A stretch of 31,755 nucleotides of DNA from an uncultured Bacteroidales bacterium (GTDB lineage: Bacteria > Bacteroidota > Bacteroidia > Bacteroidales > GCA-2711565): positions 1 through 31,755 of the forward strand of contig CAYNTB010000001.1 in the NCBI GenBank assembly GCA_964399905.1, given 5' to 3'. The notes below the pieces were generated by a model, which made no database searches, had not been told where the DNA came from, and worked only from the letters and a program-made list of their open reading frames with translations. The position numbers were made by a program, and so were the translations under genes. Positions 1,209 to 20,903 of this stretch are shown piece by piece. The stretch's first letter is position 1, and each line of letters starts with the position of its first letter.

Positions 1209-4200
1209 ATGAAAAAAATTTTAATCATTGATGATAACCAAAAAGACTTATTTTCCTATGAGGCAATCTTTAACAACAAAGAACTAGCTTACAAAGCATT
1301 AACAGCAGACACTGGTGCACTTGGACTTGAATTAGCCAGAAAAGAAAAGCCTGATGTTATTATTATCGATGTAAAACTGCCGGATATAGATGGTTTTAGT
1401 GTTTGTAAAAGATTAAAAAGTGACACTTCCTTAAATTTCATCCCTGTCATCATGATTTCAGCCTGGGGAGCACAGAAAGATAATCGGCTCAATTCATTAA
1501 AAGCGGGAGCTGAAATATTTCTGTCGAAACCTATAAATGTTGATGAACTGCTGGCCCAGGTTAATGTATTGATCCGAATTAAAACAGATGAAGATAAACT
1601 ACGGAAAGAGAGGAATAAATTTGAAAAGCTTGCCAATGATAAAACCAACGAACTTAAAGAACTTAATAATTATCTAAACCTTCAGATTAAAAAAATGCCT
1701 GTGGGCCTCATAACCTGGGATGTCGATTTTAAGGTGATTTCATGGAATCCGGCTGCAACCCAAATATTTGGATATGGAGCTAAAGAAGCTTTTGGCAAAA
1801 CACCATTTGAAACCATCCTGGCGCCCGAATTACAACAAACAGTATCTGAACTTTGGAAAAAACTGCTTAAGGGAGATAAAAGCATCCAAAACATTAATAA
1901 AAACCTAACAAAAAAAAGGAAAACAATTGTTTGCGAATGGACCAATACCCCACTCATTGACGAAGATAAAAAGGTTATCGGTGTAATGTCGATGGTAAAA
2001 GATATTACACCTGAATACTACCAGCAGCGTTTGGAAAAAGGAATGAACACACTCAATAAAGCCCTTTTATCAAAAACTGGGATGGAATTTCTTAAACAAT
2101 TTGTGATTCAACTTTGTAAAGTACTCGAAGCTGATATGGCTTATATTGGCTTGCTCGAAGACGATCAAAAAATGATCTCCAGTATTTCTGCCGCCCAAAA
2201 TGGAAACTTGTTGGAAAACTTCAATCATCCAATAAAAGAGACTGCCTGTGAAGAGGTTACCAAGGGCCAAATTTGTTCATTCCCCAAAAATATTACCAAA
2301 CTATTCCCCAATGACAAATTTGTTAAAGGCTTAAAAGCTGAAGCAGTTATTGGTTTGCCTTTATTCGACACCCAAAACAAAGTGATCGGTATTGTTTCAT
2401 CCGTTTTTAAGAATCCGAATAACGAAATAAACTATCATGAGCAACTCATTCAAATTTTCACCACGCGGATTGCAGCTGAAATTGAGAGAATAAGTTTTGA
2501 TCAAAAAATTCGTGAAAGTGAAAAACAATTTCGCGAAATGGTCGAGAAATTTCCATATCCGATGGCTCTGACAAAAGGCGATCAATTTATATACCTAAAC
2601 CAGAAGTATACGGAAACCTTTGGATATTCGCTTGATGACATTCGAACTTTTAACGATTGGTTCAAAAAAGCATATCCGGATGAAAAATACAGGGAACTGG
2701 TCAGAAGCAGTTGGAACGAAGCTGTTGAAATTGCCAGGATTAATCATGAAGAAATTAAAACTCAAGAGTGGAATTTGAGAACTTTGTCGGGCCAGATAAA
2801 AACATGTGAGTATAACACTGTTCCACTGGCTGACTCTTCTCTTATCGTTATGAATGACATTACCAAGCGCAAACGCAGCGAACTTATACAGACTGTATTG
2901 TATCAAATCTCAAACGCAGCAAACACAACCAATGATTTGGCAGAGTTTATTAAAGTCATTCGCGAAGATCTTGGAGCTGTTTTAGACACGACGAATTTTT
3001 TTGTTGCCTTTCATGATGAAGAAAAAGATATTTTATATACCCCTTATGAAGTTGATGAAAAAGATGAATTTACTTCCTGGCCCGCTGCAAAATCATTAAC
3101 CGGTTATGTCATTAAAAACAAAAAACCTCTGTTTGCCACCAAGCAAGATATCAAGCAGTTGCACAAAGAAGGCAAAATTAATTTGATTGGCACAATTGCA
3201 GAAGTATGGGTTGGAGTACCATTGATTTTGGAGGGGAAAGTATTGGGCGCATTCGTTGTTCAAAATTACGATGACCCCAACACATATAGCCGGAAAGATG
3301 TACAACTACTGGAATTCATTTCCCACCAAATCAGCATTTCCATCCAAAGAATTCAGAATAAGATTGAGCTTGGAAAGGCATTGGAAAAGGCACTTGAATC
3401 CGACCGGCTGAAGTCTGTCTTTTTATCTACCATGTCGCATGAATTAAGAACCCCATTAAATGCCATTATCGGATTTTCCGAACTGATTAATGCAAAAACA
3501 AAGCCTGAAGATATAGAACGCTTCGTTAAAACAATTTATAATAGTGGGAATTTGTTGCTTGAACTTGTTGAAGGCCTCTTCGACATTACACTTATTGAGG
3601 CTGGTGAAATTAAAATTGAAAAAGAATTTCATAACTTAAAACTCATCATTGATGATGTGGCGGATGTTATCGATGCCGAAAGAAAAAAAACAAACAAACA
3701 AAATATAAAATTTCATATCTCTGAATATCCTTTCAACAATGAGCTGCAAATTTATACAGACAGTTATAAATTAAAACAAATACTCCTTAACTTATTAAAA
3801 AATGCCCTGAAATTTACCCATGAAGGTGCAATCAGACTTGATCTTTCAAAGGAAACGATTGGGAAAGAAAGTTTTGTGAGGTTTGTGGTTCGGGATACAG
3901 GAATTGGAATCCCAAAAAATAAATTGAATTTTATTTTTGATATATTCAGACAGGCAGACGACTCCCATACCCGAAAATATGGGGGTGCAGGAATCGGTTT
4001 ATCGGTGACAAAAAAACTAACCGAACTCTTAGGTGGAAACATTGAAGTTAAATCAGTGGTAAATAAAGGAACAACATTCTATGTCAATATTCCGCTTACA
4101 GCAAATAATATCAAGCCTAAAAAAACACCCTTAAATAATCATAAAGTTGAAATTATTTATCCCAATAAAACCATACTTATTGCCGAAGATGATGATTCCA

Positions 4201-4523
4201 GCATGACATTGCTTAAAATTTACCTAAAAAAACTCGGTGTTAAAATTTTACACGCTACAAATGGGAAAGAAGCCCTCGAAGTATTTCGAAGCAAACCCGA
4301 TCAGATTGATCTGATATTAATGGACATCAATATGCCTTTAATGAATGGATATGAAGCAGTGACTGAAATTAAGAAGATCAATTCAGCCGTTCCCATCATT
4401 GCCCAGACCGCATATGCCATTTCAGGTGACCGAGAAAAAGCCTTACAGAATGGCTGTGATGATTATTTGTCAAAACCTATTAATAGTGATCAGTTGATAC
4501 ATATGATTAAGAAATTCCTATAA
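1209..4523 (+). CDS. Soluble hybrid sensor histidine kinase (REC-PAS-GAF-PAS-GAF-HisKA-HATPase-REC)
   Basis: N-terminal receiver (IIIDVKLPDIDG), PAS (WNPAATQIFGY), H-box MSHELRTPLN, N box NLLKNALKFT, G1 DTGIGI, G2 GAGIGL, C-terminal receiver (LMDINMPLMNG). No transmembrane segment is evident. Confidence 0.93.
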   Translation: MKKILIIDDNQKDLFSYEAIFNNKELAYKALTADTGALGLELARKEKPDVIIIDVKLPDIDGFSVCKRLKSDTSLNFIPVIMISAWGAQKDNRLNSLKAGAEIFLSKPINVDELLAQVNVLIRIKTDEDKLRKERNKFEKLANDKTNELKELNNYLNLQIKKMPVGLITWDVDFKVISWNPAATQIFGYGAKEAFGKTPFETILAPELQQTVSELWKKLLKGDKSIQNINKNLTKKRKTIVCEWTNTPLIDEDKKVIGVMSMVKDITPEYYQQRLEKGMNTLNKALLSKTGMEFLKQFVIQLCKVLEADMAYIGLLEDDQKMISSISAAQNGNLLENFNHPIKETACEEVTKGQICSFPKNITKLFPNDKFVKGLKAEAVIGLPLFDTQNKVIGIVSSVFKNPNNEINYHEQLIQIFTTRIAAEIERISFDQKIRESEKQFREMVEKFPYPMALTKGDQFIYLNQKYTETFGYSLDDIRTFNDWFKKAYPDEKYRELVRSSWNEAVEIARINHEEIKTQEWNLRTLSGQIKTCEYNTVPLADSSLIVMNDITKRKRSELIQTVLYQISNAANTTNDLAEFIKVIREDLGAVLDTTNFFVAFHDEEKDILYTPYEVDEKDEFTSWPAAKSLTGYVIKNKKPLFATKQDIKQLHKEGKINLIGTIAEVWVGVPLILEGKVLGAFVVQNYDDPNTYSRKDVQLLEFISHQISISIQRIQNKIELGKALEKALESDRLKSVFLSTMSHELRTPLNAIIGFSELINAKTKPEDIERFVKTIYNSGNLLLELVEGLFDITLIEAGEIKIEKEFHNLKLIIDDVADVIDAERKKTNKQNIKFHISEYPFNNELQIYTDSYKLKQILLNLLKNALKFTHEGAIRLDLSKETIGKESFVRFVVRDTGIGIPKNKLNFIFDIFRQADDSHTRKYGGAGIGLSVTKKLTELLGGNIEVKSVVNKGTTFYVNIPLTANNIKPKKTPLNNHKVEIIYPNKTILIAEDDDSSMTLLKIYLKKLGVKILHATNGKEALEVFRSKPDQIDLILMDINMPLMNGYEAVTEIKKINSAVPIIAQTAYAISGDREKALQNGCDDYLSKPINSDQLIHMIKKFL

Positions 4524-4594
4524 GAATCCATCATTGAAAGTAAATATCAAATATTGATACTTCTGGAATAAAAAGAGTCGAAAATATTTCACAA

Positions 4595-4619
4595 AAAACC
4601 CGGGTTCATCCCGGGTTTT
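4595..4619. terminator. Bidirectional intrinsic terminator between the convergent kinase gene and hyaC
   Basis: Perfect hairpin AAAACCCGGG-TTCAT-CCCGGGTTTT with A and T tracts on the two sides. Confidence 0.8.
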
Positions 4620-4625
4620 ATAATC

Positions 4626-5321
4626 TTAGTCGTTCTCTAAATCTTCTTTATTTACAAGCTTCCAACCTCCAATCATTGATGATGTCACCCCATTCCGTTC
4701 AATGTAATCATGGTATGCAACCAAATAAATATGTATGATTGCAAAAATGATGAAAAACCACATCAATACATGATGTATGTTACGGACAGCCAAATCTCCT
4801 CCAAGAATTGGAACAATCCATGCGAACAATTGTGGGAACCAGGAATCACTCATTGCGGCATACAGCCCAAATCCGGTCAGGCTTTGCAATAGGAATGCTA
4901 AAAATGTTAGGAAATAAGTAAAAGCTGCCAGTGAATTATGCCCGACTGAAACGGAAGACCCGTTTGTAACCTGCATAATATCAAGCTTTAAAACTTTCCA
5001 TATCTCAACCCAATGTTTCTTTTGAAATGGGATGAAATGATACCATCTTGAATATTTATTCCCCACAAAACCCCAATATATCCGAAACAAGAAATTGAAA
5101 AAGAAAAGGAAAGCTGCAATAAAATGAGTAAACCTGATGATCCCGAACCAATAACCAAAAGAAGCCTCTGCCGAACTTTGAATGGCAGGCGGATTTCCGA
5201 TTAAATATCCCGTAACTGACAGAACAACGATGCATAAGGCATTAATCCAATGGTAAAATCTCACCGGCAATTGCCATACATATTCTTCGGTAATTATTTG
5301 AGTTTTTGTCTGCTTTTTCAT
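4626..5321 (-). CDS. hyaC: [NiFe]-hydrogenase b-type cytochrome subunit
   Basis: VWQLPVRFYHW, RFTHF, GHNSLA, IHH and IHIY heme-His motifs, four hydrophobic helices, directly downstream of the large subunit. Confidence 0.93.
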   Translation of the reverse strand: MKKQTKTQIITEEYVWQLPVRFYHWINALCIVVLSVTGYLIGNPPAIQSSAEASFGYWFGIIRFTHFIAAFLFFFNFLFRIYWGFVGNKYSRWYHFIPFQKKHWVEIWKVLKLDIMQVTNGSSVSVGHNSLAAFTYFLTFLAFLLQSLTGFGLYAAMSDSWFPQLFAWIVPILGGDLAVRNIHHVLMWFFIIFAIIHIYLVAYHDYIERNGVTSSMIGGWKLVNKEDLEND

Positions 5322-5390
5322 TCGATAATGATTTTAATTTTGACTTAAGCCACAGTTTGATTTAAAACACGCAGTTTAATTTTAAAATGA

Positions 5391-7109
5391 TCAAAAAGTT
5401 TGAATCTGATGTACATATGTGCCTTTCTCATCATAAAGATGGACTGCACATGCAATACACGGGTCGAACGAATGTATGGTTCGCAGTATTTCTATCGGAT
5501 TTTCCGGATCATCTATGGGTGTGCCAATCAGAGATTCTTCATAAGCAGATCTCTTTCCTTCTATATCTCTTGGCGAAGCATTCCAGGTACTTGGCACAAC
5601 CAGTTGATAATTATCGATTAATTTATCCTTGATTTTTATCCAATGTGCCAGTGCGCCCCGGGGAGCTTCCGTTAAACCTACCCCTTTTGCATCTTTCGGC
5701 CATGTTTCGGGTTTCCATTTTTCAGATGAATGGGTCCGTGTATCCCCATTTTTTATGTTCGCAAGCAATTGATTATAAAACTCTTTCGACCAATTGGTTA
5801 CCAACTGTGTTTCCAGCCCCCTTGCAGCGGTCCTTCCCAGGGTCGAAAACAATGCAGATACAGGAACATTCAGATGTTCCAGGGCCGCATGAACGACATC
5901 CTGAAATTCCGTTTTACCTGAGGCATATCCAACCAACATTCGTGCAAGCGGACCCACTTCCATGGCGTGTCCTTTCCATCGCGGTGTTTTTAACCAACTA
6001 TATTTAGCATTCACATCCAAATGTTCATAGGGTGGTTTCGGACCGGAATACTTCAGGTTGGTTTCACCATCCCAGGGGTGTTTACCTACCTGATCTCCAT
6101 CGGAATAGGTATACCAGGAATGAGAAATCTGTTCCTGAATCTGATCCGGATCAGTGGCATCAATGGGAATAACCTCCGCTAAATTTCGATTCAGGATTAT
6201 TCCTCTCGGGAATTTGAAACTGTCAACATCTGCATAGCCATTTGTGGGTAAATCACCATATGCCATATAATTTGTTAATCCGCCTCCGATTGCTCCCCAG
6301 TCTTTATAAAATGAAGCAATGGCAAGTAAATCGGGGATATAAACCTGATTAATGAATTCCTGGGCTTTATCAAATAGATTACCAACAAAGGCAAGCCGTT
6401 CAGCATTCAGCGCATTATTTTCATCCAGGTTAATGGCGCACGGGACACCTCCCACCAAATAATTCGGATGCGGATTCTTTCCGCCAAAAATGGTATGAAC
6501 TTTTACGATTTCTTTCTGCCACTCAAGGGCTTCAAGATAATGCGCAACTGCCATTAGGTTTGCTTCCGGAGGAAGTTTGTATGCATTATGCCCCCAATAA
6601 CCATTTGCAAAAATCCCCAACTGTCCGCTTTCAACAAACTTCTGAATTCTGTATTGAATGTCGGAAAAATAACCGGGTGAACTTTTCGGCCATTTAGAAA
6701 TACTTTGTGCAAGGGTCGAAGTTGCTTTTGGATCAGCTTTTAATGCTGAAACAACATCAACCCAATCCAATGCATGTAAATGATAAAAATGAACCACATG
6801 ATCCTGCATATATTGGGCGCAAAACATCAGGTTCCGGATAATATCCGCATTGGGTGGAACTACTATACCCAGCGCATTCTCAACTGTTCGGACAGAAGCC
6901 AATGCATGAACCGTGGTACAAACGCCACATACCCTTTCGGTATATGCCCATGCATCACGGGGATCTCTTCCTTTTAGGATAATTTCAATTCCCCTTACCA
7001 TGGTTCCTGAGCTGAAAGCATCAACGATTTTACCATCTTTAATTTCTGCTTCAACCCTTAGGTGACCTTCTATGCGGGTAATTGGATCTACAACTATTCT
7101 TTGTGCCAT
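5391..7109 (-). CDS. hyaB: [NiFe]-hydrogenase large subunit, group 1d-like
   Basis: RIEGH, L1 ERVCGVC, GGKNPHPN, L2 DPCIACAVH followed by a cleavable C-terminal extension. No selenocysteine codon. Confidence 0.97.
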   Translation of the reverse strand: MAQRIVVDPITRIEGHLRVEAEIKDGKIVDAFSSGTMVRGIEIILKGRDPRDAWAYTERVCGVCTTVHALASVRTVENALGIVVPPNADIIRNLMFCAQYMQDHVVHFYHLHALDWVDVVSALKADPKATSTLAQSISKWPKSSPGYFSDIQYRIQKFVESGQLGIFANGYWGHNAYKLPPEANLMAVAHYLEALEWQKEIVKVHTIFGGKNPHPNYLVGGVPCAINLDENNALNAERLAFVGNLFDKAQEFINQVYIPDLLAIASFYKDWGAIGGGLTNYMAYGDLPTNGYADVDSFKFPRGIILNRNLAEVIPIDATDPDQIQEQISHSWYTYSDGDQVGKHPWDGETNLKYSGPKPPYEHLDVNAKYSWLKTPRWKGHAMEVGPLARMLVGYASGKTEFQDVVHAALEHLNVPVSALFSTLGRTAARGLETQLVTNWSKEFYNQLLANIKNGDTRTHSSEKWKPETWPKDAKGVGLTEAPRGALAHWIKIKDKLIDNYQLVVPSTWNASPRDIEGKRSAYEESLIGTPIDDPENPIEILRTIHSFDPCIACAVHLYDEKGTYVHQIQTF

Positions 7110-7123
7110 TGTTACCTCCGTTT

Positions 7124-8221
7124 TTATTTAGTTTGAGAATCAGTTTTTTTTAGTCCTTTTTGGATCAATTTGCGTTTGCGGATATTCGTTGAAATGGCAT
7201 GTGCGGCAATTCCAACACCCGTAACAACACCTAATCCAAGTCCAATTTTATCAGCTGTTGTTTCGATTCCAAATCCCGGGAAACTTTGTAAATGCTGGTA
7301 GAATGGGCCATTGTCCCAGAAATTTGCTTCGCTGCATCCAATACATGGATGGCCGGATTGAATCGGGAAACTTACGCCATTGTTCCATTTAATGACGCCA
7401 CAAGAATTATACGTATTCGGTCCCCGACAACCAACTTTATACAGGCAATAGCCTCTTTTTGCATTTTCATCATCAAAGCTTTCAACAAATAATCCGGCAT
7501 CGTAATTGGGCCTTCGATAACAGGTATCATGCACTCTTCTTGAATAAAATGCTTTTGGCCTTCCCAATGCATCCAATTGAGGTATTCGGTCGAATGTTAA
7601 CAGATGAATTACCACCCCGGCCATTACTTCAGCTATTGGCGGGCATCCCTGAACATTGATGATTGGTTTCCCTTTAATTACTTTATGAACCGGTTTGGCA
7701 CCAGTCGGATTTGGTGATGCTGCCTGAACACAACCGGCAGAGGCACAATTACCCCAGGCTACAATTGCCTTTGCCCCTTCTGCGGCTTCATTCAGAATCT
7801 CATAAGCACTTTTCCCACCGATACAGCAATATCCATCATCCACCGTTGGAATTGATCCTTCGACCATTAATAAATATTCACCATGATATTTCTCCATGGT
7901 ATCATGCAATGATTTCTCAGCCTGATGCCCTGATGCTGCCATCAATGTTTCTGTATAATCCAGCGATATTTTATCAAGTACAATATCGGCCACTATCGGA
8001 TGGGATGACCGGATAAATGATTCGCTGCAACAGGTACACTCCTGTAAATGAAGCCATACAACCGGAATTCTTGATTTACTTTCAAGGGCTTTTGCAATTT
8101 GCGCCACGCCAGTCGCCTGCAATCCCATCATGGCACCCATGGTACCACAGAACTTCAAGAAATCACGCCGTGAATGGCCTTTCGCCCTGATTTCTTCATA
8201 AAGAGTTGGTTTCTTGTTCAT
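7124..8221 (-). CDS. hyaA: [NiFe]-hydrogenase small subunit with Tat signal and six-cysteine proximal cluster motif
   Basis: Tat motif SRRDFLK, ECTCCSESF, WGNCASAGCVQAA, medial/distal cluster cysteines (GCPP, HDTCYRR, CLYKVGC, FPIQSGHPCIGC), C-terminal membrane anchor. Confidence 0.97.
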   Translation of the reverse strand: MNKKPTLYEEIRAKGHSRRDFLKFCGTMGAMMGLQATGVAQIAKALESKSRIPVVWLHLQECTCCSESFIRSSHPIVADIVLDKISLDYTETLMAASGHQAEKSLHDTMEKYHGEYLLMVEGSIPTVDDGYCCIGGKSAYEILNEAAEGAKAIVAWGNCASAGCVQAASPNPTGAKPVHKVIKGKPIINVQGCPPIAEVMAGVVIHLLTFDRIPQLDALGRPKAFYSRRVHDTCYRRPNYDAGLFVESFDDENAKRGYCLYKVGCRGPNTYNSCGVIKWNNGVSFPIQSGHPCIGCSEANFWDNGPFYQHLQSFPGFGIETTADKIGLGLGVVTGVGIAAHAISTNIRKRKLIQKGLKKTDSQTK

Positions 8222-8248
8222 AATGTGAATAATTTATGTTAGTAATCT

Positions 8249-8455
8249 TTATTCAAATTCCTGGTCAACCTTTGAAATATGGTAGGATCCTTCAATGGTA
8301 ACCTTATCTCCCAAATGTTAGTTGCTCGATAAATTTGTCGATAACATTAAATACTTAGGCCGGCAAACGATTTTAATGATGCACTTTGAATCTTTTGCTA
8401 ATATTTCCATCACTTCACCCGATAACGTAAATTGCTTGATGTGCTTTGAAGGCAT
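8249..8455 (-). pseudogene. Small (68-codon) OB-fold-like hypothetical gene interrupted by one in-frame TAA at 8318-8320
   Basis: Manual translation gives MPSKHIKQFTLSGEVMEILAKDSKCIIKIVCRPKYLMLSTNLSSN*HLGDKVTIEGSYHISKVDQEFE*. The frame stays protein-like after the stop. The gene lies between the promoter-like box and hyaA. Confidence 0.55.
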
Positions 8456-8480
8456 CGCTTTTATATTTCAAAACTTCATA

Positions 8481-8496
8481 TGGCAATATCATGCCA
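8481..8496 (-). promoter_or_regulatory. Sigma54 (-24/-12)-like element or palindromic operator TGGCA-N6-TGCCA
   Basis: The minus strand reads TTGGCATGATATTGCC. GG and TTGC match the sigma54 consensus but are separated by 9 rather than 10 nt. The element sits about 26 nt upstream of the small ORF's ATG. Confidence 0.5.
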
Positions 8497-8621
8497 AGAT
8501 TCAAAATTTTTCAATTCACACCTAAAAATGAATGAGCTAAATAATTGATAACATTTGATTTATCTCTGATTAATTATAGATAAATACATATATGATATTG
8601 TGATGCATATTTTAAAGTTGT

Positions 8622-8654
8622 ACAGAATTCCGTAAAAATTACACGGAATTCCGT
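8622..8654. promoter_or_regulatory. Tandem palindromic sites, candidate upstream activator sequences
   Basis: ACAGAATTCCGT (8622-8633, one mismatch) and the perfect palindrome ACGGAATTCCGT (8643-8654), 21 bp apart and about 130-160 bp upstream of the -24/-12-like box. Confidence 0.6.
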
Positions 8655-8657
8655 TAA

Positions 8658-9647
8658 TTATTTGGCAGCGGAACAGCTATTGGGTGTAAGGTGGTATTTT
8701 TTCATTTTATCCCTGAATGTTGAAAGGCTCATTTTGAGGGATCTGGCGGCATCTGATTGGTTTCCTTTTGTGACCTTTAAAGTTTCACAAATCATGTGAC
8801 TCTCAACACAATTTACCACCTCATTAAAATCCAATTCTCCATTATTAAAGCAATTATGACAAGATTTTATTAAAGTTTCGGCTCGGTCATTTTGATTTAT
8901 CTCAGCTGGTAAATCGTGGCTATCTATATTTTTATCGGCAAATACAGAAATCCGGTGAATGACATTTCTCAATTCGCGAACATTGCCCGGCCAATCATAG
9001 CTGATTAATTTTCGCATAGCATCCAAACTTATATGTAATTGTTTTTGAGGGGCAAAACGTTTTAAAAAATGTTCAGCTAATAAAGGAATATCATCTCTAC
9101 GTTCCCTTAAGGGAGGAATTTCAATGGGAACAACATTGATCCGGTAATACAGATCATCCCTGAACCGCTTTTCACTTACCATCTTTCTCAAGTCAACTTT
9201 TGAGGCAGTGATTAAACGGATATCTATGGGAATCGAACGTGTACCCCCAAGTTTCATGATCTCACGGGTTTCGAGCACCCTCAATAACTTGGACTGAATA
9301 TCCAGTGAAACATCATCAATATCATCAAAGAAAAAGCTCCCTGTATTTGCCAGTTCGAACAATCCCATTTTATCATGAATTGCACTGGTAAAAGAACCCT
9401 TTTCATGTCCAAATAATTCGCTGGCAAGCAATTCAGTAGGCATCGCAGATAACCCAATTTTTACAAAGGGGTTTTGGCTTCGATTACTGATCTGATGAAT
9501 ATATTCTGCAAATATTTCCTTACCAACACCAGTTTCGCCAATAAGCAATATTGAAGTATCAGAATCTGCAATTTTATTAATGCGGTTGATAATCAATCGC
9601 ATTTGTTCATTGGCCGTAATGATAGAAATCGGTAGTTTCCCAGTCAT
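8658..9647 (-). CDS. Sigma54-interacting (bEBP) AAA+/Fis-HTH transcriptional regulator lacking an N-terminal sensory domain
   Basis: Walker A GETGVGKE, ELFGHEKGSFTSA (GAFTGA-like), FRDDLYYRINV, WPGNVRELRN, C-terminal HTH GNQSDAARSLKMS. The AAA+ domain starts about 8 residues after Met1. Confidence 0.9.
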   Translation of the reverse strand: MTGKLPISIITANEQMRLIINRINKIADSDTSILLIGETGVGKEIFAEYIHQISNRSQNPFVKIGLSAMPTELLASELFGHEKGSFTSAIHDKMGLFELANTGSFFFDDIDDVSLDIQSKLLRVLETREIMKLGGTRSIPIDIRLITASKVDLRKMVSEKRFRDDLYYRINVVPIEIPPLRERRDDIPLLAEHFLKRFAPQKQLHISLDAMRKLISYDWPGNVRELRNVIHRISVFADKNIDSHDLPAEINQNDRAETLIKSCHNCFNNGELDFNEVVNCVESHMICETLKVTKGNQSDAARSLKMSLSTFRDKMKKYHLTPNSCSAAK

Positions 9648-9674
9648 TTTTTAAGGTTTTAAGAAAAGAGCAAT

Positions 9675-9905
9675 TTAAATATCGCCCATTTCCTTTAAGG
9701 CTTTGATGGTATCCAGGGCATCCTGTTTGTCAACAAGGCTAAGGGCTGTTCCAACATGTACCAGAACATAGTCGCCTACTTTGGCTTCGGGCAACCATTC
9801 CATACAAACATCTGTTATAGCCCCTCCAAAATCAACTTTCCCCATTTTAATATCCGGATTACTCTTATCAAACGATAGTATTTTTGCAGGTACAGCAAGG
9901 CACAT
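9675..9905 (-). CDS. hypC: Hydrogenase maturation chaperone HypC/HupF
   Basis: MCLAVP N-terminus and VGDYVLVHVG motif, 76 aa. Confidence 0.96.
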   Translation of the reverse strand: MCLAVPAKILSFDKSNPDIKMGKVDFGGAITDVCMEWLPEAKVGDYVLVHVGTALSLVDKQDALDTIKALKEMGDI

Positions 9906-10002
9906 AATAGTTAATTTAGTTATATATATCTATGTATATATTTAGTTAGGCAGGATAAATATAGTACAAAAATTCTTTGAACACAATATTAAAATTTAAA
10001 AT

Positions 10003-10010
10003 TAACTTTG
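10003..10010 (+). promoter_or_regulatory. Bacteroidota housekeeping -7 promoter element for hypA
   Basis: TAACTTTG matches TAnnTTTG, 23 nt upstream of the hypA ATG. Confidence 0.55.
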
Positions 10011-10033
10011 ACATTTTAAAATCCGTTTAGCAG

Positions 10034-10375
10034 ATGCATGAATTATCCATTGCCTACAGCATTATAGATATTGTAAATGAAGAAGCTCAAAAAGCCAATT
10101 CATCCAAAGTTTCAGAAATTGAACTGGAAGTCGGAAGTTTATCAGGCGTTGAGGTTGACGCATTGGAATTTGCCATGGAAGCTGCAAAAAAAGATACGAT
10201 TATTGAAGCTGCTGAAATAAAAATCTTACTAAAACCAGCTATTGCAAAGTGTAAAAAATGCACTACTGAATTTTCAGCGACTTCATTATTTGATCCATGC
10301 CCGCAATGTGGCGGGTTTGAAAACGAAATTATACAAGGCCAGGAAATGCGCGTAAAATCACTTGTGGTTGAATAA
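10034..10375 (+). CDS. hypA: Hydrogenase nickel metallochaperone HypA
   Basis: MHELSIA nickel motif, two CxxC motifs (CKKC, CPQC), 113 aa. Confidence 0.96.
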   Translation: MHELSIAYSIIDIVNEEAQKANSSKVSEIELEVGSLSGVEVDALEFAMEAAKKDTIIEAAEIKILLKPAIAKCKKCTTEFSATSLFDPCPQCGGFENEIIQGQEMRVKSLVVE

Positions 10376-10377
10376 AA

Positions 10378-10854
10378 TCAGGATACTTTTGCCAAGATTG
10401 ATTTTACCAGTTTAGCGATCTCAGGCAAAGAATTTTCAACATTTTCAGATAGCGTCATCCGAACTTCGCTAATATCTTTCACTGTAACAGTAATCAAATA
10501 AATTTTGGGCATATGCCCCAGAAGTGTGGCTGTTTCAACCAGGTCTTTTAGCCCGATATCGTGAGAACTCATGGCCTTTGGGAAATCAGAGGCAAACTTT
10601 GGCTCTATTAAACTAATGCTACCTTCTTCTTTCGAATCGATGGTGGCATCAATCATAATCAGTGTTTTATAATCTTCCATTACCGATAGCATATGGAAGC
10701 CCCCTGTTCCTCCATCCAATAATTCTGTATTTGCAGGCAATTCCTGAGTTTCTAAATACCTAACAGCATGTATCCCAACACCTTCGTCCCCAAGGATTAC
10801 ATTTCCTACACCCAGTATTAATATCTTTTCAGCAGTTTTGTTAGCGTTTTTCAC
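10378..10854 (-). CDS. hyaD: Hydrogenase maturation endopeptidase (HyaD/HybD family)
   Basis: ILGVGNVILGDEGVG, DGGTGG, IDA and SSHD motifs. GTG start. Confidence 0.92.
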   Translation of the reverse strand: MKNANKTAEKILILGVGNVILGDEGVGIHAVRYLETQELPANTELLDGGTGGFHMLSVMEDYKTLIMIDATIDSKEEGSISLIEPKFASDFPKAMSSHDIGLKDLVETATLLGHMPKIYLITVTVKDISEVRMTLSENVENSLPEIAKLVKSILAKVS

Positions 10855-10877
10855 AAGTTTGGTTTTAAGTCTGAGCG

Positions 10878-10885
10878 CAAGTTTA
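10878..10885 (-). promoter_or_regulatory. Probable -7 promoter element for hyaD
   Basis: The minus strand reads TAAACTTGCG, one mismatch to TAnnTTTG, in the 54-nt metF-hyaD gap. Confidence 0.4.
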
Positions 10886-10908
10886 TAAATAATTTTTAAG
10901 ATCTGAAA

Positions 10909-11865
10909 TTAAAATATCTCTTTTGCTATGGCTTTAATATTGTCGGAGATACCAATTGTAAAATAATGGATGGCAGGCACTCCGAACTTTGCCAATTCTT
11001 TTGATTGTTCAATGCTCCATTCAATCCCGACCTGAAATGCCTGCTTATCATCCTTGCACCTGTTAATTTCTTTTACGAGTGTATCAGGAATATCAATATT
11101 AAAAACCTTAGGAAGATGCGCTAAATCCTTACGCGTGGTAATTGGTTTTAAACCGGGTATAATTGGAACCTGAATCCCGTTTGCCCTGCATTTCTTTACA
11201 AATTCAAAATATTTCTGGTTATCAAAAAACATTTGGGTTACGATATAATCCGCCCCTGCATCCACTTTTTCTTTCAAATATTGTAAATCGTTCTCCATAT
11301 TGGGGGCCTCGACGTGCTTTTCGGGGTAACCAGCCACCCCGATTGAAAAATCTGTGGTTGTTTTATTTTCCAGATGTTCATCAAGATAACGACCATGGTT
11401 CATATTCATAATTTGCTTCACAAGATCTGAGGCATAGGCATGTCCATCTTCTTCTGCATGGAAATATTTATCTCCCTTTAAGGGGTCACCACGTAAAACC
11501 AACAAATCTTTAATTCCCAAAAAATGAAGATCGATCAAAGCATATTCTGTGGCGTCTTTTGTAAATCCGCCACAGATGATATGTGGAACTACATGAACAT
11601 CAGGGTATTTGTACTTTATGGCTGCTGATATTGCAACCGTTCCCGGACGTTTCCTGATTGTTTGTCGCTTGAGCAAGCCACCAGGCAATTTTTTATATAC
11701 GGTTTCTTCCTGATGATATGTAATGTTGATATTCAACGGATTAAATTCAATTAAATTATCAATGGTGTGATAAATAGAGTCAATATTGTGGCCCTTTAAG
11801 GGAGGCAATAATTCGAAAGAAAAATAAGGACGTTCAGCCCTTGCAAAATGCTCAATAACCTTCAT
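10909..11865 (-). CDS. metF: 5,10-methylenetetrahydrofolate reductase
   Basis: FSFELLPP, VPHIICG, LRGDP, AGYPEKH, LKEKVDAGADYIVTQMFFD motifs. Directly downstream of metH. Confidence 0.95.
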   Translation of the reverse strand: MKVIEHFARAERPYFSFELLPPLKGHNIDSIYHTIDNLIEFNPLNINITYHQEETVYKKLPGGLLKRQTIRKRPGTVAISAAIKYKYPDVHVVPHIICGGFTKDATEYALIDLHFLGIKDLLVLRGDPLKGDKYFHAEEDGHAYASDLVKQIMNMNHGRYLDEHLENKTTTDFSIGVAGYPEKHVEAPNMENDLQYLKEKVDAGADYIVTQMFFDNQKYFEFVKKCRANGIQVPIIPGLKPITTRKDLAHLPKVFNIDIPDTLVKEINRCKDDKQAFQVGIEWSIEQSKELAKFGVPAIHYFTIGISDNIKAIAKEIF

Positions 11866-11871: not shown

Positions 11872-14800
11872 CTATTTATAATTTAAATTGTTATTTAATA
11901 ATTTTTCAACTGCTGATAGTGACAATTTTTTGCGACGGGCATAATCCGCTACCTGATCGCGACCCATTTTCCCAATATTAAAATACTGGGATTCAGGATG
12001 TGAGAAATAATAACCACTCACCGATGCGGCCGGATACATGGCAAAATTCTCTGTCAACTTAATTTGCAAATGCTGCTCAGCTTTAAGTAATCTGAAAAGT
12101 GTTTTCTTCTCAGAATGCTCAGGACAGGCCGGATATCCGGGAGCAGGACGGATGCCCTGATATTCTTCCTTTAGAATATTTTTTATTTCTAATGATTCTG
12201 TCGGTTGATAGCCCCATTCAAATTTCCTAACTCTTTCGTGCATCAATTCTGCAAAAGATTCAGCTAAGCGATCAGCCAATATCTTCAACATAATTGATTT
12301 ATAATCATCCAGTTCATCTTCAAATTTTTTCACCCATTTTTCAATGCTAATACCGCAAGTAACTGCAAATCCGCCCATATAATCAACAGTTGCCTCATTC
12401 TTAGGTCGGATAAAATCAGCCAATGACAGATTCGGCACCCCTGGCTTTTTCTCTATTTGATTTCGGAGAAAATAGAATTTTTCGATTATTTCTGAACGTT
12501 CATCATCTGAATATATTTCGATATCTTCGCATGCTGAATTGCAGGGAAATAACCCAATAACTCCTTCCGCCTGCAACATTTTTTTATCAATAATTTCATC
12601 TAAAAATACCTGTGCTTCATCAAATAATTTTTGGGCTTCTTTTCCTTTTACCGGATCGTTGAAAATATCCGGGTATTTGCCATTAATTTTCCAGGCATGG
12701 AAAAAGAAGGTCCAATCAATATATTCTCTGATCAGGGATAGATCAAAATCTTTGAACACCTTTATTCCCAGATTATTCGGCTTATAAACCTGATAGTTCC
12801 CCCAATTAATTTCAAGTTTATTCTTCCTGGCAGTTTGAAAGTCAATTATTTCTGCATCAGATTTATTATTGAATTTCTGAACCAGTTCAGAATATTCATC
12901 TTTTATTTGTTCGATGAATGTTTCTTTTTTCTCATCTGATAACAATTCGGATGTAACTGTTACAGCTTTTGATGCATCTCTAACATGTATGACAGGACCT
13001 GAATATTTTGGTGCAATTTTAACTGCGGTATGTATTTTTGAGGTGGTCGCCCCTCCGATTAATAAAGGAACTTTAAAATTTTGCCTTTGCATTTCTGAGG
13101 CTACATCCACCATTTCATCAAGTGAAGGCGTTATAAGTCCGCTAAGTCCAATAATATCAACCTGTTCATTAATGGCTGTTTGAAGTATTTTTGTTGCTGG
13201 CACCATCACTCCTAAATCAATAACTTCAAAATTGTTGCAAGCCAGTACAACCCCAACTATATTTTGCCCGATATCATGAACGTCTCCTTTAACGGTTGCT
13301 AATAATACCTTTGGTTGTTTTTTAGGCCTTAGCTCCAGGGTTTTTTCCTGTTCAATATAGGGGAGCAATTTCGCCACACCCTTTTTCATAACCCTGGCAC
13401 TTTTGACAACCTGTGGTAAAAACATTTTTCCGGAACCAAACAAATCCCCCACAACGTTCATTCCGTCCATCAGTGGTCCTTCAATCACTTCAAGTGCCCT
13501 TGAATAATTTAATCTGGCCTCTTCAACATCTTCTTCGATAAATTCTACAATTCCTTTAACAAGTGCATGCTTCAGGCGTTCAACAACCGGATATTCTCTC
13601 CAGGCATCTTTTTTTTCGATAAAATGATCCTTTCGATCCATCTGATCAGCAAATGCAATCAAACGTTCAGTTGCATCTTTTCTTCGGTTAAAAATCACGT
13701 CTTCAATAAGTTTAAGAAGATCGGGCGGAATTTCATCATAAATCTGAAGCATGCCCGGATTTACAATTCCCATATCCAGTCCTGCTTTAATTGCATGATA
13801 TAAGAATGCTGAATTCATGGCTTCACGAATGATATTATTCCCCCTGAAAGAAAATGAAAGATTGCTGATACCGCCACTTACTTTTGCATAAGGTAAATTT
13901 TCCTTGATCCATTTTGTGGCTTTAATAAAATCGATGGCATAATTATTATGAGCATCGATCCCGGTTCCAATGGTCAGTATATTGGGGTCGAAGATGATAT
14001 CTTCAGCCGGAAAATGAACTATTTTAGTGAGTATATCATAAGCACGTTTGCAAATTTCAATTTTTTGATCAAATGAAGTTGCCTGGCCGTTTTCATCAAA
14101 GGCCATCACAACCACTGCCGCTCCGTAAAGCTTTATTTTTTCGGCATGTTCAATAAAAGCTGTTTCTCCTTCCTTTAAACTAATCGAATTTACAATGGCT
14201 TTCCCCTGAATACACTTCAAACCCGATTCTATCACAGTCCATTTTGAAGAATCAATCATGATCGGCAGCCTGGCAATTTCTGGTTCTGAAGCCAACATAT
14301 TCAGGAAACGCATCATTTCCTTCTCTTCATCAAGCATGGCATCGTCCATGCTGACATCCAAAACCTGGGCACCGCCTTCTACCATATCTCGGGCAACAGA
14401 GAGGGCTTCTTCGTATTTCTGATCCCTGATCAGGCGTGCAAATTTTCTTGAACCACTCACATTGGTGCGTTCCCCAATATTAATAAAGTTGCTTCCTTTA
14501 AATATTTTTAAGGGCTCCAAACCGCTTAAATGCAGCTCTGGTTTTTTTTCAGAAGGAATATGAATATCAGCCTTCTCTGCGATTTTTGAAATTGCTTTAA
14601 TATGCGCAGGGGTGGTACCACAACAACCTCCAATTACATTCACATAGCGATTATCGACGAACTCTTTTAATTGGGCAGCCATCATTTCCGGTGATTCATC
14701 ATAGGCTCCGAACTGATTGGGCAAACCGGCATTGGGGTGGGTACTGATATAAACACTTGATTTGGCTGCCAATTCGGCCAGATAAGGTCTTAAATCCTTT

Positions 14801-15549
14801 GCCCCCAATGAACAATTTAAACCGATACTTAATAAATCGACATGTGAAACGGAATGCATAAATGCCTCAACAGTCTGACCTGAAAGGGTTCTGCCGCTGG
14901 CATCCGTAATTGTACCTGAAATCATAAGAGGTATCCGTTTTTGTTCCTCCTTCATCAATCTTTCGATGGCAAAAATGGCAGCCTTTGCATTTAAAGTATC
15001 AAAAATGGTTTCGATCAGAAAAAGATCGACTCCTCCCATTAGCAATCCCTTTGCCTGCTCAAAATATGCATTCTCCAAATCATCAAAGCTCACTGCCCGA
15101 AATCCCGGATCTTCAACTTTTGGTGACATAGAAGCAGTTTTACTGGTCGGGCCAATGGCTCCTGCAACAAATCTTGGCTTTGCCGGATTTGCTTCAGTAA
15201 ATTCATTGGCAATTTCGGCAGCTATTTTTGCTGCTGCCGTATTTATTTCCAGAACATATTCCTCCATCTGGTAATCTGCCATCGAGATGGAGTTTGCATT
15301 AAATGTATTTGTTTCAATGATATCGGCACCGGCCTCAAGGTACTCTTGATGGATTTCGCGAATTATTGCGGGTCTTGTTAAACAAAGCAGGTCGTTGTTT
15401 CCTTTTAAATCGCAAGGATGTGATTTAAATCGTTTGCTTCGGAAATGGGATTCGTTCAACTTATATTGCTGGATCATGGTTCCCATAGCTCCATCAAGCA
15501 CTAAAATCCTGCTTTTTAATTCTTTATATATATTTTTTTCAAGCCTCAT
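11872..15549 (-). CDS. metH: Cobalamin-dependent methionine synthase
   Basis: LDGAMGT, zinc-binding GGCCG, pterin domain IGERTNV, B12 motif GDVHDIG, reactivation domain [10 protein letters not shown]. 1225 aa. Confidence 0.98.
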
Positions 15550-16631: not shown

Positions 16632-18053
16632 ATGAATTTGAAAATGATAGAAACTACCACCGATTATAAAGTTGCCGATATTAAATTGGCCGAATATGGA
16701 AGAAAAGAGATTGAAATTGCCGAGAAAGAGATGCCCGGTTTGATGTCGATCAGGAGAAAATATGCACAAGAAAAACCTTTAAAGGATGTAAGAATAAGTG
16801 GATCATTGCATATGACCATCCAAACAGCTGTACTTATTGAAACACTGGTTGAACTTGGGGCCGATGTAAGATGGGCGAGTTGTAATATTTTTTCCACACA
16901 GGATCATGCCGCTGCAGCCATTGCAGCTTCAGGCGTACCTGTATTTGCCTGGAAAGGCGAAACACTTGAAGAATATTGGTGGTGTACCAAACAGGCCCTT
17001 TCTTTTCCTGGAGACAAAGGCCCTCAGCTGGTTGTTGATGACGGGGGAGATGCTACTTTGCTGCTTCATAAAGGGGTAAGTATTGAAAACAATCCTCAAT
17101 TGCTCCAGAAAAAAACGTCGAACAATGAAGAAGCGGCCATTTATAAATTATTGCAAAACACCTATCTGGAAGATTCCCGAAAATGGCATAAAGCCACCGC
17201 CGATTGGAAAGGCGTATCAGAAGAAACAACAACCGGCGTCCATCGCCTATATCAGATGATGGAGAACGGAGAACTTCTGGTACCAGCCATTAACGTGAAT
17301 GATTCCGTTACTAAATCAAAATTTGATAATCTGTATGGCTGTCGGGAGTCTTTGGCCGATGGCATTAAACGAGCCACAGATGTAATGATCGCAGGCAAAG
17401 TGGTGGTTGTTTTGGGTTATGGCGATGTTGGCAAAGGTTCAGCAAAATCAATGCGTTCATATGGTGCCCGTGTAATCGTTACGGAGATTGACCCCATTTG
17501 TGCACTGCAGGCAGCCATGGAAGGTTTCCAGGTTACTACCTTAGAAGAAGCATTACCGGAAGGAAACATTTTTGTGACAACCACCGGAAACAAGGACGTT
17601 ATTACCCTGGAACATATGCAGAAAATGAACGATCAGTCAATCGTTTGCAATATCGGGCATTTCGACAATGAAATTCAGGTCGAAAAACTTGATATGGCAA
17701 CAAACGTGACGAAAGTAAATATAAAACCGCAAGTGGATAAATATACCTTCGCAAATGGAAATTCAATATATCTACTGGCAGAAGGCCGCCTTGTTAATTT
17801 AGGCTGTGCCACAGGTCACCCCTCGTTCGTAATGAGCAACTCTTTTAGCAATCAAACACTTGCTCAAATTGAACTTTGGAAAAATAATTATGAAATTGGC
17901 GTTTACAGGCTTCCTAAACATCTGGACGAAGAAGTTGCCCGTTTGCATCTCAACCAAATTGGGGTAAAATTAACCAAGATGACTCCTGAGCAGTCTGAAT
18001 ATCTGGGTGTGCCAATTGAAGGTCCCTATAAAGCTGACCATTATCGATACTAA
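16632..18053 (+). CDS. ahcY: Adenosylhomocysteinase (SAH hydrolase)
   Basis: [51 protein letters not shown] and [10 protein letters not shown] motifs. Confidence 0.98.
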
Positions 18054-19037: not shown

Positions 19038-19886
19038 TCAATATAATATTCTTTCTGCACCTGAGGGATCTTCGAGCTCAAATTTAATAATAGAAAGCTC
19101 CGTACCATCGTGAGCGGCATTGTATGCCATTGTTCGTCCAATTTGCTGCTTCCAGAAACCTGTTATCCTGGTAGATTCGTGAATATGACCATGAAGGGTA
19201 ATCAAAGGTTGCCGGTTTTCTATAAATCTTTTTATGGCAATGCTTCCCACATGAACATCCATAGGAACATAATCTACCATAACCCCATCTAGTGCGGCTC
19301 TGTCAAGATGTGTTTTATAAGGTGGGGAATGAAAAAGAAAAACAGCCCTTGAAAGATCATCTTCATTTGTCAGCGACTCCAAATCCTTCTGAATAGTTGC
19401 ATATTCAATATCTTCTGTAGTTTCGAAAGTGCGAAAACCTTCGGTTGGGTGAACACAGCCGGGATCCACATATCGGGAAACATCATATTTCTCCCAGTCT
19501 TTCATCTGGAAAGGGGTTGGGGGTACAAACGAATATCCGTAAACAGGATAATTATTCAGCATATGCTTTTTTTGGTTTAGGTAATGAAACAATCCCTGTT
19601 TGCTTTCTTCTTTAAACTTTTCCTCTTCACATCTTGCATCGTCATTCCCGAGTATCAGAAATATACAGGGGTATTGGTCCTTCAAATCCTTCTTTAGTTG
19701 ATGGAAAGCGGGAAAAAGAAAATCTGATAGAAAATCATCATAATTCTCAAATTTCTTGAAAATATGTGGCAAAATATCTCCTCCCAGGAATAGAACATCC
19801 GGTTTTTCTATCCTGATTTGATCAAATAATTTTTCATATTTATCGATGTGACCATGAAGATCCGTAACAAAAAAACATTTATTCAT
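19038..19886 (-). CDS. Calcineurin-like metallophosphoesterase (Icc-related)
   Basis: Five motifs: TDLHG, GGDIL, LGNDD, FHSPP, HGHIHES. Confidence 0.9.
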   Translation of the reverse strand: MNKCFFVTDLHGHIDKYEKLFDQIRIEKPDVLFLGGDILPHIFKKFENYDDFLSDFLFPAFHQLKKDLKDQYPCIFLILGNDDARCEEEKFKEESKQGLFHYLNQKKHMLNNYPVYGYSFVPPTPFQMKDWEKYDVSRYVDPGCVHPTEGFRTFETTEDIEYATIQKDLESLTNEDDLSRAVFLFHSPPYKTHLDRAALDGVMVDYVPMDVHVGSIAIKRFIENRQPLITLHGHIHESTRITGFWKQQIGRTMAYNAAHDGTELSIIKFELEDPSGAERILY

Positions 19887-20749
19887 TCAATCGTTTTAAT
19901 AAGTTTGGCCCCATCAGTAATGGCCCCGATCATTGAGGCAAAACTGTTTTTGTTTTTAATATCTTCGTCCGTAACAATATGTAAATCAATCAGTCCGTCG
20001 GTTTTATAGCCGGTTTTCAAAAAATTCATCTCAGATAAGCAAAGGCTCCAACCTTCGATCCAGGCCCTAAGTTCCATTTGCTGAGTTAAGTTGCCTGCAA
20101 AATGAATAAGAAGATCAATGTCGCTAGCCGGACCGGCTGTCGCATTTTTTGTGCTCCCGATCACATATACTGATTTAACACCATACTTTGCCAAATTTAG
20201 TTTATCTGCAATTATTTTCACCATCTCTGATCTCCATTTCCAATGTATATTTGATTGCGTATGAATCAGTGAAGAGATGTTCTCGTCCGTCGCAATCTTA
20301 TCACTTTCACTCTCATCAAAAAGCGCAATTGTTTTTTTTAATCGTTTATTAAATATGTAATTACTGATCTGAAAGGCTATTGTATTTAGCAATTTTTGCT
20401 CCTCCGGCAAAAACTGGGAATCACCTATCATTTTTTTGAATTCAGTATAATATACTTCAATTTTCCCTTCTATTTCTTCGTCAATTATGATATCCGAATA
20501 TTGAACCCACTCTGTTTCTTCCCATCCCGGTTCTTTATAGATTTTACCCTCAAATATTATTTTTACCCGGGTAATAATTGGATATTGCCAACCGCCCCAC
20601 AAATGTTTTACAATCTCCATCAGGAACTTGTCAACCGGCAAATTTTCACTAATAATCTCCTGCACCCTGTACAGGCATTTAATCTCTTTCTCTCTTTCCC
20701 TAAGGCTCTGAATTTCCTTTAGGTAGTAGTCTTCATTTTTTATCATCAA
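19883..20749 (-). CDS. GAF-like sensory domain fused to a Pol-beta-superfamily nucleotidyltransferase domain
   Basis: C-terminal GSTKNATAGPASDIDLL (GS plus DxD) with a third Asp in LIDLH. The N-terminus LREREKEIKCLY...WQYP...GKIEVYY...FLPEEQKLL is recognised from memory as a GAF-like segment of sensor proteins. Confidence 0.75.
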   Translation of the reverse strand: MMIKNEDYYLKEIQSLREREKEIKCLYRVQEIISENLPVDKFLMEIVKHLWGGWQYPIITRVKIIFEGKIYKEPGWEETEWVQYSDIIIDEEIEGKIEVYYTEFKKMIGDSQFLPEEQKLLNTIAFQISNYIFNKRLKKTIALFDESESDKIATDENISSLIHTQSNIHWKWRSEMVKIIADKLNLAKYGVKSVYVIGSTKNATAGPASDIDLLIHFAGNLTQQMELRAWIEGWSLCLSEMNFLKTGYKTDGLIDLHIVTDEDIKNKNSFASMIGAITDGAKLIKTIE

Positions 20750-20903
20750 ATCTGATTTAATATAAAAAACATCTCAATTCTATCAACTAAATATTAAATT
20801 AAAAGGCAATTTGAGTTATCCCTGAATTTGAGGGTTTTATTTTTATTCTTCCCTCACCACTTTATTATAACTGCTTCTGAATTTTAAGATTAGAAAATTG
20901 CAG

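Follow-up and report, generated by a model that had tools for sequence, protein, structure and literature searches.

What would a cell do with a sensor-fused nucleotidyltransferase whose gene runs into that of a metallophosphoesterase? The question is raised by two minus-strand genes in a stretch of 31,755 nucleotides (nt) of Bacteroidales DNA, the whole of which is called the window here. They encode a 287-residue protein with a nucleotidyltransferase (NTase) domain, referred to as NT, and a 282-residue metallophosphoesterase, referred to as MPE. What is known of minimal nucleotidyltransferases mainly concerns antitoxins to HEPN toxins and enzymes that modify antibiotics, and here such a domain is tied to a signalling input and a phosphoesterase instead of a HEPN toxin. 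A sequence-only reading of the same DNA had proposed that the two genes form an undescribed writer and eraser of a nucleotide signal. From the comparative analysis that followed, a self-contained, chromosomally inherited two-gene signalling module is the best explanation of NT and MPE, and the pair probably adds and removes a nucleotide tag on signal.

Pairing of the two genes across phyla

An NT-anchored scan of one genome per GTDB species returned 45 loci from 44 genomes, the module being essentially single-copy, in Bacteroidales, Prolixibacteraceae, Lentimicrobiaceae, Caldithrix, Krumholzibacteriota and Thermoplasmatota archaea. The MPE gene is directly adjacent to that of NT in 38 of these loci, and three of the seven exceptions lie at a contig edge. 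Metagenomes were also scanned with MPE as the anchor, and an NTase adjoins it in 64 of 80 loci, while in roughly half of the 16 negative loci the flanks are not long enough for a verdict. The co-occurrence that the sequence-only reading had proposed to score is therefore strongly conserved when counted from either gene, and the outcome it had named as damaging, homologues that rarely neighbour the phosphoesterase, is not what we observe. Since there are 882 full-length homologues of NT and at least 7,730 of MPE (clusters at 90% identity, spanning bacteria and archaea), and since adjacency is kept across phyla, the pairing is far beyond chance.

The NTase partner occurs in a compact form, like NT, and in a large form with additional central domains, described below. 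In the MPE-anchored loci the large form is convergent with MPE in 34 cases and co-directional in 2, the compact form is co-directional in 16 and convergent in 2, and 10 loci were assigned to neither form (cut by a contig end, or with an NTase lacking a fused N-terminal domain). Among the genome loci, the genes of the 22 co-directional ones with both open reading frames (ORFs) called overlap or are separated by up to about 17 nt, and those of the 12 convergent (tail-to-tail) ones are mostly 0-7 nt apart. The convergent compact loci make up one clade, which looks like the result of a single inversion after which adjacency was kept. Adjacency also outlasts fission and fusion of the partner, as seen in four loci with altered architecture (L093, L111, L065 and L083). 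The pairwise identities of NTase and MPE are correlated (r = 0.64, Mantel p = 0.001), a value to which shared phylogeny alone may contribute in part. Clustering of the flanking ORFs of the 45 related loci revealed no third conserved gene family, and the flanks of the pair differ even in its closest relative.

Domains and active sites of the two proteins

The ORF of NT counts 288 residues from a TTG at 20749, but the likely start is the ATG one codon further in, which corresponds to the Met at which homologues begin, and all residue numbers given here follow the resulting 287-residue numbering. The best 120 of the 882 homologues are 267-338 residues long and mostly start at the equivalent Met. 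At the other end of the gene the plus strand reads 'tcat', that is ATGA on the minus strand, in which the TGA of NT (19885-19883) overlaps the ATG of MPE (19886-19884); both ORFs and their overlap, read in the DNA, are as first described. By sequence and model, NT is a cytoplasmic fusion of a GAF-like sensor, a flexible linker and an MNT-type NTase with an intact active site.

The NTase domain belongs to the Pol-beta superfamily by its catalytic residues, its Pfam scores, the order of secondary-structure elements of the core in the AlphaFold2 (AF2) model, and Foldseek. Residues 188-260 match NTP_transf_2 with 31 bits (cutoff 21) and Polbeta with 27.3 bits (cutoff 26.9). The catalytic set (GS, DID and a third Asp), which the sequence-only reading had called intact, can be read directly from the DNA; its residues G197, S198, D209, D211 and D254 are invariant in all 94 NTase domains from loci that also hold MPE, and W169, W171, R172, Y194, K200, S208 and H256 are conserved in 91-94 of them. 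A Foldseek search of the PDB with this domain retrieved MntA/MNT antitoxins (7bxo, 6m6u, 8xeo, 7ae2 and 7ae9) as well as AadA/ANT enzymes; three of these entries, 7bxo, 6m6u and 7ae9, are described as 'mono-AMPylated HEPN toxin in complex with MNT'. At the sequence level NT scores 19.1 bits with the NCBIfam MntA equivalog NF047752, whose cutoff is 60 bits, and the NCBIfam matches of the pair (MntA, ANT(4'), YfcE-type and ApaH) are all sub-threshold. A search of PDB chain sequences with NT, MPE and one large relative gave nothing significant.

Hemerythrin and a LysR-type module are further fusion partners of this NTase subfamily, suggesting an output role for the NTase. Among mid-sized NTase relatives no fusion to MPE was found; these carry PPDK_N fragments, hemerythrin or LysR fusions instead. 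The hemerythrin-NTase fusion (P0223) is encoded in two contigs (L046, 4001-5179; L047, 2343-3521), in both of which the same gene, for 441 residues with no Pfam match, lies directly upstream.

In the AF2 model the N-terminal domain of NT (N-domain) opens with a long helix, continues with a second helix and four strands, and closes with a helix of 35 residues. The model, built from 16 homologues, has a mean predicted local distance difference test score (pLDDT) of 81, with values of mostly 83-94 in the N-domain. Foldseek against the PDB returned GAF domains (4g3v, 3cit, 3p01 and 8jrc) with probabilities of 0.98-1.0 and template modelling (TM) scores, normalised to the target, of 0.47-0.53. The Pfam GAF models PF01590, PF13185 and PF13492 do not match the N-domain of NT even at E ≤ 1, nor does any other Pfam model at that level; the sole GAF match is a weak summed one (1.2e-7, to the C-terminal part of the model) in P0123, a relative with four copies. 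The domain, in which Cys24 is near-invariant, has a signature of its own, ER.KE.KCLY ... WQYP ... W.Q ... G.IEV.Y ... FLPEEQ.LL..IA, which across the family relaxes to ER.KEL.C ... WQYP ... W.Q ... G..EV.Y ... PFL.EE..L. When 1.84 billion representative proteins were searched with a profile, 9,284 matches were obtained; the domain occurs there once or up to five times per protein, often as tandem copies, and is carried by Ser/Thr kinases, methyl-accepting chemotaxis proteins, histidine kinases and HAMP/GGDEF proteins as well as by PPDK_N proteins. Because it recurs in kinases, chemoreceptors and histidine kinases, we regard the N-domain as a real signalling input. Model and sequence together indicate a genuine, reduced GAF-like domain that has no Pfam model, so that the GAF-like input proposed at the outset is upheld, for the N-terminal ~140 residues, by both fold and recurrence.

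The proteins P0121, P0123, P0146, P0166 and P0172 are examples of such tandem arrangements, in which Ser/Thr kinases, chemoreceptors or histidine kinases carry as many as five N-domains. A stand-alone N-domain of 150 residues also occurs in two Bacteroidales genomes (L034 and L035, 5001-5453 in each), 70-74% identical to that of the window and with no NTase or MPE nearby; the two end at the same length, which could mean either that a single-domain variant is stable or that both share one truncation.

The linker between the two domains is variable in the alignment, and its pLDDT falls below 50 at residues 149-162. BLASTP places about 770 extra residues of the large relatives, including PPDK_N, at this site.

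MPE matches Pfam Metallophos (PF00149) over residues 6-237 with 48.3 bits (cutoff 21.5) and has the motifs D9-x-H11, G36-D37, G80-N-D-D83, H186 and G233-H-x-H236, the metal-ligand residues of which are invariant in 93-94 of 94 family members. From its sequence it is an intact, active-type binuclear metallophosphoesterase of the calcineurin-like superfamily, with one deviation: motif III reads GNDD and not GNH[DE], the His being replaced by Asp. Loss of this His is typical of diesterase and pyrophosphatase members (YfcE, MJ0936, LpxH) and not of protein phosphomonoesterases. The best Foldseek matches are the uncharacterised aq_1956 (2yvt) and TT1561 (1uf3), followed by LpxH, Mre11/SbcD, MPPED2 and YmdB; the best NCBIfam model, the YfcE-type PRK09453, scores 23.9 bits (cutoff 117) and matches the N-terminal 88 residues only, and the JGI label is 'Icc-related'. 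MPE shares the binuclear fold and all metal-ligand motifs with the phosphodiesterases CpdA/Icc, Rv0805 and YfcE/MJ0936, whereas the GNDD motif and two long insertions set its family apart from the CpdA/Icc and YfcE types. These insertions, residues 123-156 (PPTPF..KDWEKYDVSRYVDPGC; PPTPF.LKDWEKYDVSRYVDPGC) and 191-211, form loops that are modelled by AF2 with low confidence and are invariant from bacteria to archaea, between which overall MPE identity is 48-57%. The loops are rich in Tyr, Ser and Thr (Y134, S137, Y139 and Y190).

Table 1 Features of the window discussed in the text, with positions counted from its first letter
Feature	Position	Strand	Remarks
NT gene (sensor-nucleotidyltransferase)	19883..20746	minus	ATG at 20746, 287 aa; TGA at 19883-19885
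NT ORF counted from TTG	19883..20749	minus	288 aa
GAF-like sensor domain	20303..20746	minus	NT residues 1-148; AF2 and Foldseek
Linker	20249..20302	minus	NT residues 149-166; poorly conserved, low-confidence
Minimal (MNT-type) Pol-beta NTase domain	19886..20248	minus	NT residues 167-287; Pfam and Foldseek
Catalytic G197-S198	20153-20158	minus	from DNA
Catalytic D209-I-D211	20114-20122	minus	from DNA
Catalytic D254	19985-19987	minus	from DNA
NT/MPE stop/start overlap	19883-19886	minus	ATGA, from DNA letters
MPE gene (metallophosphoesterase)	19038..19886	minus	282 aa
Intergenic stretch, PBP1a gene to NT gene	20750..20903	minus	AT-rich, 154 nt
Sigma-70-like match	20786-20759	minus	single match
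ahcY	16632-18053
SAM riboswitch RF00162	15693-15794	minus	56 bits, gathering score 44.4; sole Rfam match
metH	11872-15549		1,224 aa
metF	10909-11865
NiFe hydrogenase cluster	4626-11000		cytochrome b, large and small subunits at 4626-8221
hypA	10034-10375		NiFe hydrogenase cluster
hycI-type protease gene	10378-10854		NiFe hydrogenase cluster
Sigma-54 activator gene	8658-9647		329 aa

Large relatives and the age of the compact form

In five of the genome loci (L037, L040 and L042-L044) the NTase forms the C-terminus of proteins of 1,057-1,081 residues. BLASTP aligns NT to these in two blocks: residues 12-140 with the N-terminal ~160 residues of the large proteins (34-36% identity), and residues 168-283 with the C-terminal ~120 (61% identity in L037). 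The E-values of the two blocks are 1e-47 and 4e-28 for L037, and 5e-29 and 5e-22 for L044. This two-block alignment indicates that NT is the same sensor and NTase without some 770 central residues. The suspicion, voiced in the sequence-only reading, that NT resembles the two ends of PPDK_N proteins thus proved right, NT being a compact version that lacks the central ATP-grasp domain. NT itself has no Pfam match to PPDK_N, its linker being only about 18 residues long, and no PPDK_N gene is adjacent within the window, where the upstream neighbour encodes penicillin-binding protein (PBP) 1a and the ORF of 1,224 residues is MetH.

The large proteins share with NT the N-domain, the C-terminal NTase and an MPE encoded beside them, in 5 of 5 large-form genome loci and in 36 metagenome loci. 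They differ in their ~770 extra residues, made up of a helical segment, PPDK_N and an invariant GPGRWGS...GTHFFQDL segment, and in that the MPE gene is usually convergent and not co-directional as in the compact form. According to Pfam their central PPDK_N ATP-grasp domain is complete and is not followed by a phosphoenolpyruvate (PEP)-utilizer swivel domain; NCBIfam matches are confined to the N-terminal third of the PEP synthase, RPH and PigC models. Dikinases need the swivel His domain, which these proteins are without. In public databases they are named 'PEP/pyruvate-binding domain-containing protein', 'nucleotidyltransferase domain-containing protein' or 'hypothetical' (e.g. MFA5805101.1 and MCX6173892.1); the taxa given in large-form records are Ignavibacteriales and Melioribacteraceae.

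The GPGRWGS...GTHFFQDL segment was considered as a second, degenerate (GlnE-like) NTase and rejected, with an hhalign probability of 0.2% and no PDB profile match. Residues ~740-930 of the L037 protein (gene at 2196-5372) contain the near-invariant pattern VYVD...LMGPGRWGSRGDIKLGV..Y.DI.NT..L.E.A....P.LSFGTHFFQDLVE..I.YLPLYPD, which recurs in L040, L042-L044 and about 20 metagenome loci and has no match in Pfam or the PDB and no profile similarity to the NTase.

Other loci distribute the same parts differently. In L093 an N-domain-PPDK_N protein, a stand-alone NTase and MPE are encoded in succession; in L111 and L054 a PPDK_N protein (with N-domain and REC in L111) is encoded upstream of a compact NT and MPE; and L065 and L083 have a stand-alone NTase with MPE. 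L064 (989-4857) and L066 have no NTase, and a gene for a REC-DUF5752-PPDK_N protein of 994 residues lies directly upstream of MPE. Because of these last two loci, the partner of MPE is better described as an NTase and/or a PPDK_N protein than as strictly an NTase. A Bacteroidales protein of 1,557 residues (P0155) carries N-domain copies, in four matched stretches, ahead of REC-DUF5752-PPDK_N.

In midpoint-rooted neighbour-joining trees of the NTase, of MPE and of both, compact and large forms separate with 2 state changes over 74 tips. Mean identity among compact forms is 56% for the NTase and 57% for MPE, and in pairs whose dS is not saturated dN/dS is 0.02-0.16 for N-domain, NTase and MPE alike. 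The compact lineage is deep and diverse, and it is under purifying selection. The sequence-only reading had left room for NT to be a recent in-frame deletion remnant of a PPDK_N fusion, with no compact homologues under purifying selection; the deep compact clade, the dN/dS values and the invariant catalytic residues lead us to reject this.

Possible functions and genomic setting

Our tentative preference goes to a signal-gated writer and eraser with a macromolecular acceptor, in which MPE acts as the remover. The N-domain would sense a ligand or redox signal and control the NTase, which would transfer a nucleotidyl group (most probably the AMP of ATP) to a hydroxyl on its acceptor, a protein or other macromolecule supplied in trans. 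MPE would then hydrolyse the resulting phosphodiester and so reset the system. A macromolecular acceptor is favoured because the NTase, of about 120 residues, has no acceptor-binding lobe and its nearest solved relatives AMPylate a protein. The scheme amounts to a GlnD-like logic divided between two genes: in GlnD/GlnE a sensor-controlled Pol-beta NTase writes the mark, a phosphohydrolase activity removes it, and the substrate is encoded elsewhere. GlnD, however, is one polypeptide with an HD eraser and ACT sensors, whereas the present pair has a GAF-like sensor and a separate candidate eraser in MPE, and no GlnD or GlnE model of Pfam or NCBIfam matched.

Several observations weigh against this reading. 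The loci with a REC-DUF5752-PPDK_N gene and MPE but no NTase (L064/L066) imply that MPE is not solely the eraser of the NTase product, unless it also reverses phosphorylation. The hemerythrin-NTase relative has no MPE neighbour, and both NT genes (L009, L022) and MPE genes (L050, L121 and others) occur alone. In addition, since the MPE loops do not vary between bacteria and archaea, the substrate could be a small universal nucleotide and not a protein, and the comparative sequence data would fit MPE as the target nearly as well as MPE as the eraser.

Extended to all architectures, the writer and eraser would belong to an unrecognised signalling system of anaerobes and archaea, a proposal that we regard as doubtful. 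A GAF-like, REC or hemerythrin sensor would direct the NTase to nucleotidylylate a target, MPE would de-nucleotidylylate it, and the swivel-less PPDK_N would add a second chemistry in the large forms. As part of this proposal, and with the same doubt, a calcineurin-type metallophosphoesterase would act as a de-nucleotidylylase, a role for which our literature searches returned no description so far in that superfamily.

The first of the alternatives makes MPE the regulated effector, nucleotidylylated by the sensor-NTase and, in the large and NTase-less forms, phosphorylated by the PPDK_N protein. By analogy this would be expected from the closest solved NTase relatives, MntA/MNT, which modify a protein encoded beside them (MntA AMPylates HepT), and it agrees with a strict two-gene module without a third conserved partner. 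The persistence of a PPDK_N partner where the NTase is missing is easily explained if MPE is the common output, and the two invariant, poorly ordered loops, with their Tyr, Ser and Thr residues, likewise speak for this reading. Convergent orientation, however, is seen in about one third of the genome loci and in most of the large-form ones, which is unusual for a modifier and target of the toxin-antitoxin (TA) type, and MPE is highly conserved and not carried on mobile elements, which is not toxin-like; we consider this role unlikely.

A diffusible nucleotide signal (cyclic, oligo- or of the dinucleoside polyphosphate type), made by the NTase, degraded by MPE and read by receptors encoded elsewhere, seems to us less probable again. 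A sensor-fused enzyme with a hydrolase is the hallmark of second-messenger systems such as cyclase/phosphodiesterase and RelA/SpoT, and by analogy the presence of the cyclic-nucleotide phosphodiesterases MPPED2 and YmdB among the structural neighbours of MPE, its 'Icc-related' label, and loops that suggest a universal small substrate would all suit such a signal, as would a weak Pfam match of Adenyl_cycl_N to the G-S...DxD region of NT (E = 0.037). Against this, the NTase has no second lobe, by which CD-NTases, OAS and class I cyclases hold the acceptor nucleotide; no CD-NTase or cyclase model matched at its curated threshold; and clustering of the flanking ORFs linked no receptor or effector gene to the pair.

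Processing of nucleic-acid ends is improbable. MPE would heal 2',3'-cyclic-phosphate or 3'-phosphate ends or act as a nuclease, and the NTase would extend the 3' ends of RNA or DNA, in the manner of RNA-repair or tailing systems. RNA end healing is an established activity of the MPE domain of Pnkp (PMC2190708), Mre11/SbcD nucleases are among the Foldseek neighbours of MPE, and NT has a sub-threshold Pfam match to MTPAP-like_central, a poly(A)-polymerase palm (22.5 bits, cutoff 27). The likeness to Mre11 (TM ~0.5, 10-13% identity) is limited to the general fold, though, the pair has no linked gene for a nucleic-acid-binding domain, a ligase, a kinase or Hen1, and the sensor domains of the partners (GAF-like, REC and hemerythrin) point to signalling.

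A TA or anti-phage module of the HEPN-MNT kind, with MPE in place of HEPN, is very improbable, since weak PADLOC matches (PDC-S09 on the NTase, 5e-8; PDC-S10 on MPE, 1.7e-11) and the sub-threshold MntA match (19 bits against 60) are opposed by the absence of MPE relatives from 2.9 million viral contigs, their near-absence from 72,556 plasmids (three distant matches, at most 32% identity over most of the protein), a housekeeping context, an essentially single-copy occurrence, strong purifying selection, conservation across domains of life and frequent convergent orientation. The remaining probability falls to some other function.

With MntA of the MntA-HepT type VII TA system NT shares the minimal Pol-beta fold with GS...DxD...D, for which MntA is the best structural match, and it would likewise act with the product of the adjacent gene. 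Unlike MntA, NT is not a small stand-alone antitoxin, being fused to a sensor, and the pair is chromosomal, conserved and not mobile. Its partner is MPE and not a HEPN protein: no HEPN (Rx4-6H) gene lies beside the pair, in agreement with the sequence-only reading, and the two small flanking ORFs have no Pfam match. The pair does not fall into any catalogued defence system or cyclic oligonucleotide-based anti-phage signalling system (CBASS), and effector genes are not linked to it. A defence-system assignment was dropped, as the PADLOC matches are weak and limited to generic catalytic cores. In the metagenome locus L121 (4699-5811) the gene immediately preceding the solitary MPE gene encodes a phage-type integrase, and no other sign of mobility was seen.

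The building blocks of the module are known superfamilies, and the proposed logic has precedents. The pair, its large relatives and the N-domain are not described by any curated family of Pfam or NCBIfam or by any solved structure, and literature searches found no account of them, which agrees with the initial view that the module is undescribed. If the writer/eraser reading is right, the pair would be a new reversible nucleotidylylation switch in prokaryotic signalling. It would give a function to the MPE family, to the 'PEP/pyruvate-binding' NTase proteins and to a GAF-like domain that Pfam does not model and that occurs in thousands of kinases, chemoreceptors and histidine kinases. The arrangement is widespread in many anaerobic bacteria and some archaea, and the compact pair, with both proteins soluble and of 287 and 282 residues, offers the simplest biochemical entry point.

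The window is an ordinary Bacteroidales-type chromosome with housekeeping surroundings, and its GC content (37.8%) is close to that of the pair (37.1%). It holds no second copy of the N-domain, the NTase or MPE. Upstream on the same strand lie holB, a PSP1-domain gene, gldH and a class A PBP gene, the last being the adjacent PBP1a gene. The intergenic stretch between this gene and NT may carry a promoter of the pair's own; it contains one sigma-70-like match, and the number of promoter-like matches in it is not above shuffled expectation. The same holds for promoter and terminator scans around the pair, where an Rfam scan detected no riboswitch or RNA element.

Beyond the pair, the NiFe hydrogenase cluster includes hypA and a hycI-type protease gene (Table 1), and the sigma-54 activator encoded within its span has no receiver or sensor domain. 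Downstream of the pair are small lipoprotein-like ORFs, followed by ahcY and by metH-metF under the control of an S-adenosylmethionine (SAM) riboswitch situated upstream of metH, which together make up a methionine/SAM-cycle cluster.

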